From Candidatus Aenigmatarchaeota archaeon (GTDB lineage: Archaea > Aenigmatarchaeota > Aenigmatarchaeia > Aenigmatarchaeales > JACQIB01): 22,696 nt of DNA. Made by a program: the position numbers and the translations under genes. Where the stretch lies: the NCBI GenBank assembly GCA_046760225.1, contig JBHIDR010000008.1:1-22696 (forward strand), in the 5' to 3' direction. Positions 10,564 to 22,495 of this stretch are shown here, one piece after another. The notes below the pieces were generated by a model. The model made no database searches. It was not told the origin of the DNA and saw only the letters and a list, made by a program, of their open reading frames with translations. Each line of letters starts with the position of its first letter. The stretch's first letter is position 1.

Positions 10564-10842
10564 GGTGTGCTGGACATAGCCCGTCTTCTGTGAAGCGAAT
10601 CAGCGCTGCAATTCGCGCTTCATCTGCATCGCTTTGCAACATTTGACTTAGCTGCCTACCCGCCCCTCTTTCATCATCAGGGCCTACTTGGCATTGCACC
10701 TTGCCGGCTTGTGCCGTGAGAAACCATGAAGCTTCTCTTCGACTGCCTTGACCTCTCGGCCATGCGCCTTGGGCGCGGCAAATGTATCGGTGGACGGAAC
10801 TTCCTCACTGCAGAGCAGCGGTGGTTGCGTGCCCAGCTCACC
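10564..10842 (-). ncRNA. rnpB: RNase P RNA
   Basis: CR-I GAGGAAGUUCCGUCCACC, CR-V ACAGAAGACGGGCUA (P4 pairing), P1 GGUGAGCUGGGCA/UGUCCAGCACACC, P2 GCAAC/GUUGC, P7 UUGCCG/CGGCAA. Confidence 0.93.
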
Positions 10843-14194: not shown

Positions 14195-14262
14195 TTCAGA
14201 TGCTGGGCGAATGTGCCTTCATTGCCCCGCATTTGGCTCGGCACATACTCTGGTAGCATCAA
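14195..14262 (-). ncRNA. K-turn / C/D-like hairpin in the 23S 3' trailer
   Basis: UUGAUGCU...AUGUGC CGA GCC-loop-GGC AAU GAA GGCACAU...AGCAUCUGA. Confidence 0.5.
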
Positions 14263-14294
14263 GCCAGTGGAGGAGAAATTTTAAGGGGGTCTAA
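14263..14294 (-). other. 23S pre-rRNA processing stem, 3' arm (BHB)
   Basis: UUAGACCC-CCUU-AAA-AUUUCUCCUCCACUGGC pairs with 22026-22057. Confidence 0.92.
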
Positions 14295-14509: not shown

Positions 14510-15137
14510 TTTACGTGTGCCTACAAAAGATTAAATTTTACCTTGTTAGAGGTACCAACATGTTTCAAAAACTTTTCCACATTCCTCCATGTAAACACTA
14601 TCAATCTGAAAATATTGTTAGTGCCATTTTTATAGGGCCCATAGATTTTAGCTCTTATTTCCAACCTTTGTAAAATATATTGAGTGTATTCCAGAATTTT
14701 CTTGTCTTTTTGATACATTATTACTCTTATATCAGATTTCTTGTTTTTATTTTTGTATATAGAGCCTTCCGCATCAAAGAACCCCCTCAGGAAACTTATC
14801 TCATCACTTAATGTGTCAAATTTTACTTCATTGAGAGGTTTCATTAAAATGTTCAACACATCACTGTCTAGATTATTCTTGTGAATGTACACATAGATTA
14901 TATAAATTCCGTCAGGAGTTCTTAGAATCTTTGGGTTCTTTCCAGATACGTCCTTCAATATTGGAGCGATTGTATTTTCCAACCATTCCTTGTTCTTCTG
15001 CCTAACTACTATTCTTATCCTTTTGTTTAAATCGTATACGTGGCCATCCGCCAAAGATCCTTTCAAATAAGCCAGGGCTCCTTCCATGCACATTTATTTT
15101 GTTGGTTCCTTTAAATATTTTCTTAAGTAAGGCACAT
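14510..15137 (-). mobile_element. BHB intron 13 (after Ec 2661, sarcin-ricin loop), endonuclease-encoding
   Basis: UACG-AA^A-UGUGCCU...AGGCACA-CGUA-AA^A; splicing restores AGUACGAAAGGAAC. Confidence 0.9.
14521..15093 (-). CDS. LAGLIDADG homing endonuclease (two motifs)
   Basis: LAYLKGSLADGH and FLRGFFDAEGS. Confidence 0.9.
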   Translation of the reverse strand: MCMEGALAYLKGSLADGHVYDLNKRIRIVVRQKNKEWLENTIAPILKDVSGKNPKILRTPDGIYIIYVYIHKNNLDSDVLNILMKPLNEVKFDTLSDEISFLRGFFDAEGSIYKNKNKKSDIRVIMYQKDKKILEYTQYILQRLEIRAKIYGPYKNGTNNIFRLIVFTWRNVEKFLKHVGTSNKVKFNLL

Positions 15138-15296
15138 TTCGTACTTGCCCCTTCTTCGGGTCAGGCAACAACACCCTCAGTAGATATAAACCGTACTGTC
15201 TTTGTCGTTTGGTGTAGGACACCCAAAAAGCATAAGCGAGACAATTCTCTTAGGCTCATAAGCTACTCCTTGCGGGCATATCTAGCCTATGGGGCG

Positions 15297-15365
15297 GTTT
15301 CAGTCATTGCCTGAACTGCCTCGATATAAATTTATCATACCCTGGTATACCAACCTCATTGAAAT
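15297..15365 (-). ncRNA. Possible second intron-encoded C/D sRNA
   Basis: AAUGAGG-guide UUGGUAUACCAGGGU-AUGA...guide GCAGUUCAGGCA-AUGA; weak terminal stem UUUCA/UGAAA; degenerate C'. Confidence 0.4.
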
Positions 15366-15439
15366 GGCTACCAAACTCTGAAAGTTTCGGTCACAGCCAG
15401 AGCTAATGCTCTCTCAGTTGGATCATCTGAGGTATGACA

Positions 15440-15512
15440 GCAGGAATCGGATGTGACCTCATCTGTCATCTGCATAATGCATCATATTATCGACACTAAC
15501 CTCATACCCTGC
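15440..15512 (-). ncRNA. Intron-encoded box C/D sRNA
   Basis: Stem GCAGG/CCUGC, C UAUGAGG, D' AUGA, UGCA/UGCA hairpin, C' GAUGACA, D CCGA; D guide UGAGGUCACAU has 11/11 complementarity to 23S at 21905-21915. Confidence 0.75.
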
Positions 15513-15611
15513 TCGAAGACCACTATTGTTTGCGTCCCACTACCAAATCACGACGTACTGAACCCAGCTAATGTCCCCCTTTGATCAGTGAACACCTGCA
15601 CCCTTGGCTGC

Positions 15612-16414
15612 TTGCAGTTCAAGATAGGAAACCGGTATCAGGCAAGCCTCTTCAAAAATGCCATAATTTCTGGTTTGGTTTTGAATTTTTTCAATTCCAA
15701 TTGTTTTACTTCGTAACTTCTTACTGCGATATCAAGCACTTTATTCTTCTCGTATCCTTCCCAGTTCTTACTATCACCTGTTACCCTTACGCTTGGAATG
15801 AATCTTATTGTTCTCGCAAATTTTTTGATATCTTTTTTCTTTATTAATAAAACTTCATCATTTTCAGGTCTTATAATGGGCTCAAAACCGAGTTCTCTTA
15901 ACAGTGCATATACTTGTCTTCTTATTGTCGGATGCTTACAAGCAAATTTAACCCACTTTTTTATTTCCCATAATCCATATCTCTTATTCCAAACAACCCA
16001 TAAGCTAATTGAACCGTCGCAAGAAAACATTACTTGCAACATTCTAATCTTATGGATTTTAGGAAGTTTGAAAACAAACTTCGGTATTCTGGAATTTGGG
16101 AATTTCCCATTTTCCAGCTGTTTTGTTCTAAATGTGGGTATTAGCGTTAGCAAATATTCTCCTATTCTCTTGCTGGTAACCTTTGTTTTAATAACATCTC
16201 TGTATCTACTATCTCTGAATTGAGTAAATTTTACGTCACCAAAGATGTCCCTCATAATTTTCTTAAAAAGGCTGTGTAATTCTTTGGATTTACCTGTAAA
16301 TTCTATAACCCAGCCTCTACCTTTAGAGCTAACGCTTCCGTCTGTTAAAAGCAACCCTACTAACAAGGCTAAGTGACCCGATACCGGCGTGCTACGCACA
16401 TCCCCATCCTGAAT
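15612..16414 (-). mobile_element. BHB intron 11 (after Ec 2534), endonuclease-encoding
   Basis: GCAG-UA^A-UUCAGGAUGGGGA...UUCCUAUCUUGAA-CUGC-AA^G; second stem CCGGUAUCGGG/CCUGAUACCGG encloses the ORF. Confidence 0.9.
15638..16399 (-). CDS. LAGLIDADG homing endonuclease (probable GTG start inside the intron)
   Basis: LALLVGLLLTDGSV and MLQVMFSCDGSI motifs; G-rich SD-like sequence before GTG 16399. Confidence 0.82.
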   Translation of the reverse strand: MRSTPVSGHLALLVGLLLTDGSVSSKGRGWVIEFTGKSKELHSLFKKIMRDIFGDVKFTQFRDSRYRDVIKTKVTSKRIGEYLLTLIPTFRTKQLENGKFPNSRIPKFVFKLPKIHKIRMLQVMFSCDGSISLWVVWNKRYGLWEIKKWVKFACKHPTIRRQVYALLRELGFEPIIRPENDEVLLIKKKDIKKFARTIRFIPSVRVTGDSKNWEGYEKNKVLDIAVRSYEVKQLELKKFKTKPEIMAFLKRLA

Positions 16415-16440
16415 TACTGCACAGCCAGGAGGGGGGAAGC

Positions 16441-16474
16441 TTCTGCCTACAGTAAGTTTGCACCTAGCTGTAGT
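16441..16474 (-). other. BHB intron 10, 34 nt (after Ec 2508)
   Basis: CUGU-CG^A-CUACAG...CUGUAG-GCAG-AA^G. Confidence 0.88.
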
Positions 16475-16499
16475 CGACAGCGAGGTAGCAACGCGCGGG

Positions 16500-16745
16500 T
16501 TCTCGTTCCGAGAAGGGCTATAATTTCTCCCCAATTGGTTCCTCAAAAATAAATCTGACTTCTTGCTTTTATTTTGAAACGATTTTTTAAGTGACATAAA
16601 ATCACTGACCGAATATTTGTCGAAACTTCTTTATCTAAATTTCGTGTCTGGATAATATCAATGACCGAAATTGAGAATATGGAAGTTGAGACAGAGGTCA
16701 AGTGATTTTATGGAACCTATTGAAGAGAAAACCCCTCACCGAAAT
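16500..16745 (-). other. BHB intron 9, 246 nt (after Ec 2483); probable endonuclease-deleted remnant
   Basis: AUCG-AC^A-UUUCG...CGGAA-CGAG-AA^C (one mismatch in the central helix); splicing restores AUCGACCCCGC. Confidence 0.82.
16622..16690 (-). ncRNA. Conserved intron RNA motif, copy in intron 9
   Basis: UC-AACUUCC-AUAUUCUC-[stem]-UAGAUAA-AGAAGUU-UC. Confidence 0.75.
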
Positions 16746-16791: not shown

Positions 16792-16964
16792 AGGAGCTCT
16801 CGCCCGCCACGACTCTGTTATCCCCGGGGTAGCTTTTCTGAAGTCACCGGCATCCATCAAGGACAAACTGGTGTATCGTTAGCCCACGCTTTCGCGGCTG
16901 GATCCTTTACTGTGCAGAATCCAGTCAGGCCTCCTTTTGCGCTTACACTCTACTCCTGATTTCT

Positions 16965-17280: not shown

Positions 17281-17988
17281 TCAAAGAAGCGACAACCGCT
17301 GTTCAGTTGTTAGTTTAGGCGGGCAATTGCCCGTCTTTTCAAAAAGATAAATTTTTGACAAATGTTTTGGATTGAAAAAACCAATTTTATACATCCAATC
17401 GTTCAACATCTTCTTTCCATACATCCTTATCCTGAATTCTTTGAAACCTCTTCTTGAGGTCTTCTCAAGAGCAGGTTTAAAGCCCAGCAGTTTAAGCTGA
17501 GTCTGCACAAAATCTGCCAGTACTTCATTATTTGTGAACATCTCTATTCTAGGTTCGCAGTGTAGACCTTTTCTATTCTTTTTGAATGAAACAGAAAAAT
17601 CTGCATCTGCAAGCCCTCGTATGAAGTGTGGTATAAGACTTCCTTGAATCCATATCGGTACGTGCTTCAATTTCAATTTATTACCAACAGGAATTCCAAT
17701 GTTAACTTTCTTTTGTACGACTTCTTTGGAATTCAGAACAGCTATTAATGTACGTTCTCCCTTCTTCAAATAAACCCTTGGTCTTTTCCTATAAAGTCTT
17801 TCTATGATGTCTGGAACAATATTGGAATAAAATTCCTTATCGTTCTCTACATCACCAGAAAATTCCACACGGAAAATCCCATGATTTTTATTTATGTAAA
17901 GACAACCATCACCCAAATGTAAACCAGTTTCATATGCAAATAATTCCTTCTTTTTAAGTTTTTTGATATGAAAATTTTTAATTTTCAT
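17281..17988 (-). CDS. LAGLIDADG homing endonuclease
   Basis: FAYETGLHLGDGC and FIRGLADADFS. Confidence 0.9.
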   Translation of the reverse strand: MKIKNFHIKKLKKKELFAYETGLHLGDGCLYINKNHGIFRVEFSGDVENDKEFYSNIVPDIIERLYRKRPRVYLKKGERTLIAVLNSKEVVQKKVNIGIPVGNKLKLKHVPIWIQGSLIPHFIRGLADADFSVSFKKNRKGLHCEPRIEMFTNNEVLADFVQTQLKLLGFKPALEKTSRRGFKEFRIRMYGKKMLNDWMYKIGFFNPKHLSKIYLFEKTGNCPPKLTTEQRLSLL

Positions 17989-18251: not shown

Positions 18252-18539
18252 TTACGCTACCTTAAGACGGTCAGAGTTACCGCCGCCGTTTACGGGGGCT
18301 TGGCCCGGTTGAAACCGGGTTTAACACACCCGCACTGGGCAGGACTCACCAACTATACTTAGGATTTCTCCCTAGCAGTCAGCTACGTTTTTGTTAAACA
18401 GTCGCCTTCCCCTGGTTACTGAGACCTACCTGATCTCCAGATAGGCAAGGGTTCTACCAAAGATACCCCTCTAATTTGCCGAGTTCCCTGGATCGGTGTA
18501 TCCCGTCACGCCGTCGCCTTTTCAGCAAGAGTCACCTGT

Positions 18540-19033: not shown

Positions 19034-20053
19034 TTACTCCCGTCCATTTTCACCGCGCCGCCCCTCGACGGGTCCGCTGTTTCGTGGGCGATGAATCAAC
19101 TTTAATAAAACTTCCAAATTCCTTTTCTTTGGGTGTGCAGACCCAATTAAAAAACAAAATTTTTCTATGTCATCTTTATTGCGAATACTTAATGTCCATC
19201 TTGGATATGTGCTGCCTTTGTCAGGCATCGTTACAGATAAGTTCGACTTAATCTTCAAGTCCAATAAAATTTTTTTCATATCTTGCAAAGGCGGACATGC
19301 TGTTCGGCTATCCCAGCTCTGATAAAATCTTATTGCCATATTCTGCTTCATGGCCTTCTTCAAAGACATATCAGCTAGGTTGCCACATCCGCCTTCTGCG
19401 TCAAAAAACCCTTTGATGTAAGCTTTTTTCAGTCTTTCTGGAGCCTTCAATACGATTGATGGGGTTCGCCATTTCGTTTGCTTACCAAATGGATGATTGC
19501 AAACGACATGTAAAAATGTAGCCATAATTCTTGATTCGACTCGTAAACCCCATACATCACCCCTAAAAAGCGTGTATTGTGGCTTTTGATTAAAGTTCTC
19601 AAATACGGGTTTGATTTCTGTTTCCAGCCAAGATTTGTGCTTGGCAGAAACCATCACACTGTATCTGTGCTTTCCTGACGATGATATGAAGTGGCTTACA
19701 CTCCCATCTCGTAATGCTCCTAGAAAGTATGCCAGCCTCTCATCAAAAGTTTTGGGCAGAATGACATGTTCGGGGCTTCCAAGCAGCCCGATAAACTCGA
19801 ACTGCCTGAAAGCTTCGTCTAGTAGCTTTGCATTCGAAGTCCTAGCGACATCTTTCACAAAGGCTATCGTCGGCAAAGACGACCATGCCCGTACTGAAAG
19901 ATAGCGTTCAAGACTTTTTACGGAATATCCAAACTTTTTTGCAAAGCCTCTGTATGTCATGCCATTATCATCCCAATAAGCTCTGACAAGCTTCTTTACT
20001 CCACCCAGACGAAAATCGCCTGGTAGTTTATTGAGATAATTTGATAGATGCAC
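19034..20053 (-). CDS. HTH + LAGLIDADG homing endonuclease; stop codon lies in the downstream exon
   Basis: HTH-like GMTYRGFAKKFGYSVKSLERY, LAYFLGALRDGSV, YIKGFFDAEGG. Confidence 0.87.
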   Translation of the reverse strand: MHLSNYLNKLPGDFRLGGVKKLVRAYWDDNGMTYRGFAKKFGYSVKSLERYLSVRAWSSLPTIAFVKDVARTSNAKLLDEAFRQFEFIGLLGSPEHVILPKTFDERLAYFLGALRDGSVSHFISSSGKHRYSVMVSAKHKSWLETEIKPVFENFNQKPQYTLFRGDVWGLRVESRIMATFLHVVCNHPFGKQTKWRTPSIVLKAPERLKKAYIKGFFDAEGGCGNLADMSLKKAMKQNMAIRFYQSWDSRTACPPLQDMKKILLDLKIKSNLSVTMPDKGSTYPRWTLSIRNKDDIEKFCFLIGSAHPKKRNLEVLLKLIHRPRNSGPVEGRRGENGRE

Positions 20054-20661: not shown

Positions 20662-21291
20662 TTAAAGAAGCGCTCTCAGTTTCTTCGCCTTTATAGGATG
20701 TTCAAATCCTATTTTTTCAACAAAAATAGAAGCTTGTTTTTTTCCATTAATATGTATCATTGAAAAATCATTATATTCATAGAGGTTCGATTTTATTCCT
20801 TCTAAAGAAAGAACCTCAAAAACGTCTTTTGCTAACCCATGATTATGGACTTTCATTTGAATTCTCAAATATCCGTTCTTATGGTGAGAATCCTTCATTT
20901 CGATAACCGAACCTTCGGCATCAAAAAGTCCACATAAAAGAGAACATCTTAATTTTGAGTCCTCTTTGACGGTCTTCGGTACTCTTACTATCCTGGACTT
21001 ATTACCCGAAGGTATTCCAAGATGCTTAAATATTGTCCATATTTTCTTGGAATGCACATAAGCTACAAAGGAGTTATTGTAGCTATCAAAGTATATTTTT
21101 GGCATCCTCTTGAAGACCTTTGAAAATTTTCTAGCAAATATTTCTTGTATAAATTCTTTATTTTCTTCTACTGCCCTCACAAGATATTTACTGGAAAGAT
21201 TTCCGTCTCCAATTATGAATCCCATCAGATAATTCAAATCCTCATTATTTTTCAGAATTTCAGCTTCTTTATTGAAAATTTGAATTTTCAT
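20662..21291 (-). CDS. LAGLIDADG homing endonuclease
   Basis: LNYLMGFIIGDGN and LLCGLFDAEGS. Confidence 0.92.
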   Translation of the reverse strand: MKIQIFNKEAEILKNNEDLNYLMGFIIGDGNLSSKYLVRAVEENKEFIQEIFARKFSKVFKRMPKIYFDSYNNSFVAYVHSKKIWTIFKHLGIPSGNKSRIVRVPKTVKEDSKLRCSLLCGLFDAEGSVIEMKDSHHKNGYLRIQMKVHNHGLAKDVFEVLSLEGIKSNLYEYNDFSMIHINGKKQASIFVEKIGFEHPIKAKKLRALL

Positions 21292-22025: not shown

Positions 22026-22057
22026 TTAGACCCTATCCTCATTTCTCCTCCACTGGC
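22026..22057 (-). other. 23S pre-rRNA processing stem, 5' arm (BHB)
   Basis: GCCAGUGGAGGAGAAAU-GAGG-AUA-GGGUCUAA; with 14263-14294 forms 17 bp / 3-nt bulge / 4 bp / 3-nt bulge / 8 bp. Confidence 0.92.
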
Positions 22058-22080: not shown

Positions 22081-22150
22081 GAAGCTCACGTGACCGTCCT
22101 GATTTCATTGCCCGAAGGCTCAAAAGGTGTTCCACGCAGTCCATCGCTTC
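22081..22150 (-). ncRNA. Box C/D double-guide sRNA (predicted Um2552 and Cm1920)
   Basis: Stem GAAGC/GCUUC, D' UUGA, GCC-UUCG-GGC, C' AAUGAAA, D GUGA; guides GAACACCU and AGGACGGUCA are antisense to 23S. Confidence 0.8.
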
Positions 22151-22198
22151 CTTTTCTACCCTTCCACCACAACCGGCATCTGTTGCGATGTGCACTTT

Positions 22199-22234
22199 GC
22201 TGCTCACGAGACAGTTCCCTTAGTTCATTGCAGC
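22199..22234 (-). ncRNA. Single-guide box C/D sRNA (predicted Cm2601)
   Basis: GCUGC-AAUGAAC-UAAGGGAACUGUCUC-GUGA-GCAGC; ACUGUCUC is antisense to spliced GAGACAGU. Confidence 0.7.
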
Positions 22235-22240
22235 TTTTTC

Positions 22241-22302
22241 GCCATCATATACCCCTGGGCCTTTCATTGCTCTTGCTCAGGCATTGGCTTTATTCATCTG
22301 GC
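22241..22302 (-). ncRNA. Box C/D sRNA, target not identified in the window
   Basis: GCCA-GAUGAAU-AAAGCCAAUGC-CUGA-GCAAGAGC-AAUGAAA-GGCCCAGGGGUAU-AUGA-UGGC. Confidence 0.7.
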
Positions 22303-22487
22303 ACGCCATGTAGGACATGACCATGATTGAATGGATTTTGATAAACCCATTTGAGGTGGTTTGTTTGGTCTTTCGACCAGAAGGAGCGTCATCTCGTCGC
22401 CGATTCAGCTAGTTTTCCATTGAGTCTTCAGTTGCTGTACATACAAAGCCACCATTTTCCTGTAAGTATAATACTGTTTTCTGAAGG

Positions 22488-22495
22488 TATTTAAA
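22488..22495 (-). promoter_or_regulatory. Putative TATA box for the pre-23S transcript (possibly shared with the divergent ORF)
   Basis: TTTAAATA on the minus strand; the palindromic TTTAAA is also about 23 nt before ATG 22518. Confidence 0.55.

Follow-up and report, generated by a model that had tools for sequence, protein, structure and literature searches.

The window analyzed here, a stretch of 22,696 nucleotides, comes from a Candidatus Aenigmatarchaeota genome (G000; 851,505 bases in 83 contigs, 83% complete) and carries on its minus strand an archaeal 23S rRNA gene, which runs from about position 22033 to about position 14287 and is interrupted by about 12 insertions. Open reading frames of 190 to 339 amino acids lie within introns of the gene (20662-21291, 19034-20053, 17281-17988, 15638-16597, and 14521-15093, minus strand); these probably encode homing endonucleases. 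Another insertion, a bulge-helix-bulge (BHB) intron of 347 nt (15202-15548), separates G2597 from A2598 and is found in 20 of the 20 genomes of the order that have the region; it is small and ORF-less, with a length of 151 to 396 nt in most of the genomes (L041-L064). An archaeal RNase P RNA occupies 10565-10841 (minus strand). In an Rfam search of the window, LSU rRNA and RNase P were the sole matches at the gathering score, and the 23S leader matched no described Rfam sRNA family at that score. The 16S gene of G000, with about 14 insertions, lies on a separate contig from the 23S; the two genes are at separate loci in most other genomes examined and are linked in G141, G016, and G021 (L120, L084, and L085). 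Positions in rRNA are given in E. coli numbering, for which six relatives were aligned to rrlB and each genome was then mapped by profile.

The region upstream of the 23S gene consists of a series of folded elements, all on the minus strand. The only match to a TATA pattern in the 700 nt upstream, TTTAAATA at 22488-22495, is a putative promoter for the pre-23S transcript; this stretch is conserved in two relatives (G001 and G004), and from the TATA-like box to the 23S gene of G000 the longest T run is four. Near the 5′ end of the leader, element A (22377-22424) is a K-turn hairpin capped by a GNRA loop, here a 3-bp stem with a GCGA loop, and was recognized by eye in many members of the order. 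Then come unit 1 (22241-22302), a four-box C/D module; unit 2 (22199-22234), a half module with a single K-turn, one box pair, and one guide; element B (22158-22197), a hairpin that is not of the C/D type; and unit 3 (22081-22150), again a four-box C/D module. The four boxes of unit 1 and those of unit 3 are degenerate. The processing stem begins 24 nt after unit 3. Its 5′ arm, with the BHB helix and bulge (22034-22057), pairs with the 3′ arm and its BHB helix and bulge (14263-14286), forming 17 bp (22057-22041 with 14279-14263) followed by the bulge-helix-bulge.

A preliminary description of this DNA had placed three C/D units between the promoter and the BHB stem, each with K-turn geometry and a terminal stem. 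All three are present, with terminal stems of 4 bp (unit 1) or 5 bp (units 2 and 3), but unit 2 is a half unit with one K-turn, and the C box of unit 3, GAUGGAC, is deviant, with a G in place of the sheared A. The letters of this box are identical in contigs of runs X1 and X4, both possibly the source of this DNA; the relatives in which unit 3 could be parsed have the GA, unlike G000. The sequence of the terminal stem varies among the homologues of unit 3, and the stem is still 4 to 5 bp in 9 of 12 parsed units. For stem II of the K-turn, pairing over the 12 units did not exceed that of partner shuffles, which reached the observed value in 412 and in 2000 of 2000 trials; the unit of G001, which the pattern did not parse, shows stem II pairing by eye.

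C/D guides direct ribose methylation by the N+5 rule, so that the register of each pairing with respect to its D or D′ box predicts a single nucleotide. In unit 3 (D′ box at 22123-22120, C′ box at 22109-22103, and D box at 22089-22086), the D guide forms 10 bp, one of them G-U, with 18273-18264 in helix 69, and its position 5 lies opposite C1920 (window position 18270). The D′ guide forms 8 bp with 15597-15590 in the A-loop, with position 5 opposite U2552 (window position 15594). Both pairings had been put forward in the preliminary description, and both hold, down to the predicted nucleotide. The same description took the G at 2551 to be unusual for this genome; in fact it is a property of the phylum, being present in 54 of the 54 genomes scored.

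The D guide of unit 1 makes 9 of 10 possible pairs with 2438-2447 (16822-16831, with U2438 at 16831 and C2441 at 16828), with one mismatch and with position 5 on C2441. C2064 was considered as a target of this guide and set aside, as a constant A at guide position 2 and the precedent of MKAsR16 favor C2441. The D′ guide of unit 1 is an orphan in G000, no target scoring above 6.5 being found in 23S, 16S, or the 21 tRNAs found. The guide of unit 2 pairs over 8 bp with 2597-2604, placing position 5 on C2601, and is then mismatched at A2605; in most relatives that carry such a guide, position 5 falls on A2600 instead. The target of this guide lies at the intron junction, and we considered whether the pairing would require spliced RNA, but only guide position 1 spans the junction, and this is without consequence. 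Element B is bounded by fixed flanks, UGCA before and GAAG after, and could be recognized by eye in 23S leaders from most of the families inspected, including families without leader guides; a pocket search with it gave no convincing target.

Guides are not confined to the leader. Within the 2597/2598 intron, a C/D module at 15253-15311 carries a G2251 antisense element and a D guide for U2438; the G000 copy has an intact U2438 guide and a degenerate D′ box after the G2251 element. The same intron has an H/ACA-like K-turn hairpin (15333-15436, seen by eye), for which the pocket search gave no clear target site. A second H/ACA-like hairpin, in the 3′ trailer (14198-14260), has a pocket that fits U1911 of helix 69 with a score of 10.5, the next best being 6.5; it has no ACA after the stem and was not seen in the trailers of other genomes of the order. 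Overall, the guide duplexes of G000, at 8 to 10 bp, are at the short end for C/D guides, and the N+5 nucleotide is Watson-Crick paired at U2552, C1920, C2441, C2601, and U2438, with one guide left as an orphan.

How much of this might be chance? Of the 411 K-turn-closed candidates in G000 alone, 58 carry a D guide whose score against the rRNAs is at least 9, and unit 3 scores 9.5. A genome-wide C/D scan with this pass rate is unusable for listing true guides, and chance matches similarly dominated a looser guide scan of single genomes. Folding of the bare leader gave no excess stability over shuffles (minimum free energy z of 0.09), and a search of G000 for free-standing copies of eight guides returned only unconvincing matches. 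The pairings in one genome are therefore within chance, and they go beyond it solely through conservation and covariation. The commonness of such matches in a single genome, together with the missing thermodynamic signal, is what one would expect if the units were accidental or relic antisense matches set among K-turns that serve spacer processing, with no function as guides; the comparisons that follow make us regard that explanation as scarcely credible.

Among relatives, 41 genomes were searched, 29 had a 23S match, and 27 were fetched; G005 was excluded, having no usable 23S start, and G036, whose locus is split over two contigs, was kept out of pooled counts. In the phylum, 98 of 151 genomes matched, of which 40 outside the order were picked by hand, covering 15 families. 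Under a strict rule (an NNGA box, positions 2 to 8 paired for 7 bp, and at most one G-U), the U2552 guide was found in all 19 genomes of the order with a complete 23S, in the leader in 16 and in an intron in 3. The antisense and two shuffled controls did not exceed 4 of 19 genomes at any one position, after multi-base bins (the fractional positions 540.5, 270.5, and 639.5) were dropped. When all 23S positions were ranked in these 19 genomes, U2552 (19) and U2438 (18) came top, where the background averaged 1.3 and had its 99th percentile at 6; the next were 2091 and 2441 (11 each), 2251 (10), and 2626, 1920, and 1946 (9 each). The genomes are related and not independent, so that these recurrence counts are not probabilities.

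With a scored rule, applied to leader, short introns, and trailer, the U2552 guide was found in 41 of 54 genomes of the phylum and in 20 of 20 in the order, compared to a mean of 3.6 and a maximum of 8 in shuffles and 5 in antisense; one of the 41, in G131, looks like a chance match. Other guides recurred across the phylum as well: C1920 in 25 of 60 genomes (shuffle maximum, 5), U2438 in 27 of 56 (maximum, 2), G2251 in 19 of 57 (maximum, 4), C2441 in 15 of 56 (maximum, 6), and A2600 in 11 of 53 (maximum, 5). The C2601 guide, in 7 of 53 with a shuffle maximum of 6, is not above shuffles. Of 19 genomes of the order, 7 have a U2449 guide, 11 have the C2441 guide in the leader, and 10 have either no C1920 guide or a decayed one. 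The search detected no U2552 guide in 13 of the 54 genomes; among these are families f11, f22, and f27 and two of the three genomes of f17, in which position 2552 is A or G. More generally, U2552 is replaced in several Aenigmatarchaeota lineages (G2552 in G017, G010, G012, and f11; A2552 in f17, f22, and f27), C1920 is U or G in some members of the phylum, and position 2503 is C in the order.

Some of the recurrent positions were set aside. Matches of element A to 1946 and 2091 recur, but the matching bases form its own GNRA hairpin, and in most genomes position 5 of the pairing is a G-U and another position is mismatched; we therefore reject a guide role for this element. The hits at 2626 and 2724 represent the second-best matches of the guides for U2552 and U2438. 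In 10 relatives, but not in this genome, 7 to 8 bp can also form between the U2552 guide and 16S near U868; when the A-loop changes, this guide follows 23S.

Beyond these samples, a scan of the GTDB collection with the leader pattern gave 16 loci, in 8 Ca. Aenigmatarchaeota, 5 uncultured archaea, 1 member of the Thermoproteota, and 2 bacteria. The Thermoproteota match (L104) is not an rRNA leader. Runs X5 and X7 cover only conserved 23S and come from other organisms.

We regard covariation between guide and target as stronger evidence than the recurrence counts. Guide and target change in step at 1920, 2437, 2453, 2549, 2550, 2552, 2554, 2555, and 2556. In G017, G010, and G012, the A-loop has G2552 and U2556, and in two of them also A2550, with the guides altered at the facing positions. 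C2555 in families f12, f16, and f19 and C2554 in G086 and G097 are each matched by a G in the guide, and G2549 is matched in G070, G092, and G139. In helix 69, U1920 is faced by an A at guide position 5 in G137, G057, G070, and G092, of families f9 and f18. U2437 is matched by the guide in G026, G029, and G035 and, in another family, in G012, and C2453 is matched in G016 and G021. Not every change is compensated; G078 is mismatched at 2554, and guide position 2 is mismatched in f14, f15, f18, and f21.

Because the guides for C1920 and U2552 recur well above shuffles and because relatives show compensatory changes, we consider them real beyond chance. Recurrence far above both shuffles and antisense controls, and some nine compensated positions spread over several families, largely refute an origin as accident or relic. 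The preliminary description had also asked whether boxes and guides are conserved in relatives; they are, and the guides covary with their targets. Covariation in K-turn stem II apart, every feature of a C/D guide that can be judged from sequence is present.

The modules move freely between sites in the precursor. The G2251/U2438 module is in the 2597/2598 intron in most members of the order, in the leader in G017, G010, and G012, and in the trailer in G034; in the same three genomes, the U2552 guide has made the opposite move, from leader to intron. Outside the order, an intron near 23S position 2306 (L114, L115, L117, L119, L134, and L135) houses the G2251/U2438 module in families f16 and f19. 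Introns of 31 to 79 nt at 1927/1928 (L115, L116, L120, L126, L134, L135, L141, and L058) contain a stretch complementary to 1917-1924, followed by a D-type box that places C1920 at N+5; only a few bases separate this stretch from its target. These are weaker cases, since the guide pairs with the other arm of its own intron. An intron of 84 to 86 nt near position 1084 (L137 and L138) resembles a complete four-box sRNA, and in G103 its guide to C1920 spans 12 bp.

All guide families that recur in pre-23S RNA are directed to 23S. Among 17 genomes with both genes, pre-23S RNA had no guides to 16S beyond the U868 cross-match and matches in at most 5 of 17, and no C/D guide recurred in the non-exon RNA of pre-16S (those to 23S did not exceed 5 of 17, and those to 16S did not exceed 4 of 17). 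By eye, many 16S leaders (L066-L086) have a K-turn hairpin with a pocket complementary on its two strands to 16S 960-964 and 968-973, on either side of U966, and ahead of the processing stem they have another K-turn hairpin; a pattern written for the pocket caught 4 of the 21.

If the modules are guides, the proteins of a C/D RNP should be encoded, and they are. In G000, fibrillarin and Nop5 are adjacent on contig C30 (C30:5544-7366) and L7Ae is on C3 (C3:6719-6997), as the preliminary description had suggested should be looked for; fibrillarin was found in G000 and in 66 of 66 further genomes. That description had likewise raised the absence of the protein enzymes for U2552 and C1920. RlmE (rrmJ) was found in 0 of 67 genomes, all of them incomplete, and the FtsJ model gave only two short SAM-binding matches in G000; TlyA was not found in G000 (83% complete), so that neither rlmE nor tlyA was detected there. 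TlyA-like matches below the cutoff occur in 4 of 37 genomes, of which G013 and G018 are without a C1920 guide and G137 and G057 have one. Nep1 was not found in G000 at the same completeness. For H/ACA RNPs, the DKCLD domain of Cbf5 and Nop10 were found in G000. The Cbf5 domain (G000:C20:7483-7626, L087) sits in an open frame of just 79 amino acids. Introns in cbf5 occur in other archaea, and the short frame may be due to a cbf5 intron or a split gene.

Two further explanations were considered. One can envision that the antisense elements are folding chaperones that use L7Ae-bound K-turns as scaffolds and keep 23S domains IV and V open or ordered while the RNA is being made; methyl transfer would then be missing or a side effect. 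C/D RNPs have been proposed to act as chaperones (PMC4644070, in the part available), and some antisense elements are kept with a broken box: the G2251 element in G000 and G001, and elements in G138, G119, and G133, where the antisense is retained but the box reads GCUA. Against this, the boxes stand exactly N+5 from sites that are predicted to be methylated in other archaea, and RlmE was not found in the 67 genomes; we consider chaperoning in place of methylation very unlikely, and in any case the chaperone and guide roles are mutually compatible. Alternatively, the units could be a conventional cluster of sRNA genes, transcribed from a separate promoter, that adjoins the 23S gene and lies outside the pre-rRNA. 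Clusters of two or three C/D sRNA genes are described in archaea (PMC7994747, available in part). Yet from promoter to 23S in G000 there is neither a second TATA-like match nor a T run over four, unit 3 ends just 24 nt before the processing stem, and relatives carry the same modules within 23S introns, which are necessarily made as part of the precursor. A separate cluster therefore seems to us very unlikely.

We think it very probable that the modules of the pre-23S leader are working methylation guides made together with 23S. The basis for this is the sequence anatomy, the register, the conservation, the covariation, and the encoded proteins; assembly of RNPs and methylation at the predicted sites would follow by analogy with established C/D biology. 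The claim of the preliminary description that the rRNA precursor carries its own guide cluster is thus supported by conservation and compensatory changes, and the introns, the trailer, and C2441 extend the picture. These would be ordinary C/D guides in an unusual host transcript, conserved across the order and much of the phylum.

The likeliest reading is that the 23S precursor itself hosts the guides for its methylation. Transcription from one promoter would give a leader, about 430 nt long, in which K-turn modules fold early and are loaded with L7Ae, Nop5, and fibrillarin. The guides would then pair with 23S domains IV and V, and the ribose five nucleotides from the D or D′ box would be methylated, at U2552, C1920, C2441, and probably C2601 for the leader and at U2438 for the intron. 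Release of the leader would have to wait for the processing stem to close, at the far end of a transcript of 7.8 kb; in that case the guides would be tethered to their target during its synthesis. BHB cleavage would then yield a ligated leader-trailer and circular introns, and these could keep working in trans as free RNPs, in keeping with the BHB cleavage and ligation of pre-rRNA described in model archaea (PMC7714728 and PMC10351888, both available in part).

The single transcript, the timing, and the choice between cis and trans action are points that we infer, and on the last we lean only slightly toward action on the guides' own precursor, whether tethered or just after splicing, over action by released RNPs only. 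The restriction of targets to the modules' own rRNA and the presence of introns near their targets speak for cis action; the ease with which modules change site speaks for trans action and against any fixed geometry in cis. The peptidyl transferase region is in any case a methylation hotspot (PMC4644070, in the part available).

A broader proposal is that, in these organisms, the leader, trailer, and BHB introns of an rRNA encode most of its RNA-guided modification, which would act in cis on the nascent transcript. It would include C/D guides for U2552, C1920, G2251, U2438, C2441, U2449, and A2600 and H/ACA-like guides for U1911 and, from the 16S leader, U966, and a non-coding rRNA intron would have been made indispensable and vertically inherited across the order. 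This we put forward tentatively, thinking it rather less probable than its opposite.

If the guide function is correct, the flanks of pre-rRNA and some of its introns have been given a job, supplying guides one for one with their substrate, which would be economical for a genome of less than 1 Mb. Introns in archaeal rRNA are commonly regarded as mobile passengers; guide function offers a possible reason why the small ORF-less intron at 2597/2598 persists in 20 of the 20 members of the order examined. The long-standing question of whether a C/D RNP can modify the transcript that contains it becomes testable in vitro, and the guides predict a modification map for the ribosome of an uncultured phylum, including guides that track U2552G in the A-loop.

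K-turns in the flanks of archaeal pre-rRNA have a precedent. Tang et al. in 2002 reportedly described C/D-like K-turn motifs, without a methylation guide, in ligated archaeal pre-rRNA spacers. Those motifs are reported to lie likewise near the BHB processing stem; unlike them, the guides here covary with their targets.

The guides themselves resemble known ones. NeqsR10 has as its target U2826, which is E. coli U2552; the targets of NeqsR14 and MKAsR16 are U2712 and C2715, and guides for C2186 are predicted in four archaea (PMC4644070, available in part). From the offsets in that paper, U2712, C2715, and C2186 should correspond to U2438, C2441, and C1920, the first two being backed by the guide words. 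NeqsR10, NeqsR14, and MKAsR16 are expressed, free-standing sRNAs according to the same source, and the leader and intron modules share with them the four-box layout, the N+5 register, the guide words, and the predicted targets; the modules here differ in lying in an rRNA precursor, in their degenerate boxes, and in moving among leader, intron, and trailer.

Hosts described for guides are mRNAs, tRNA precursors, tRNA introns, and small clusters (PMC7994747, PMC6009581, PMC3491384, and PMC3608112, each available in part), and our literature search, which covered few subscription papers, found no account of guides hosted in rRNA precursors. In dicistronic tRNA-sRNA transcripts, archaeal sRNA clusters, and plant snoRNA clusters, guides are likewise cut from a longer transcript (PMC3491384, PMC7994747, and PMC6009581), and the available parts of these sources name no rRNA precursor as host. 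The closest parallel is the C/D sRNA in the intron of euryarchaeal pre-tRNA-Trp, directed to C34 and U39, likewise a guide made within a precursor and freed by the BHB endonuclease (PMC7714728 and PMC7994747, in the parts available). The arrangement proposed here differs from it in that the host is an rRNA precursor, with several modules, up to eight targets in functional centers, and guides in leader and trailer as well as in introns. It would extend the tRNA-Trp intron arrangement to the ribosome and parallel the intron-hosted snoRNAs of eukaryotes. Within the literature covered, what is new is the host transcript, and the guides it carries are akin to the free-standing sRNAs of other archaea.
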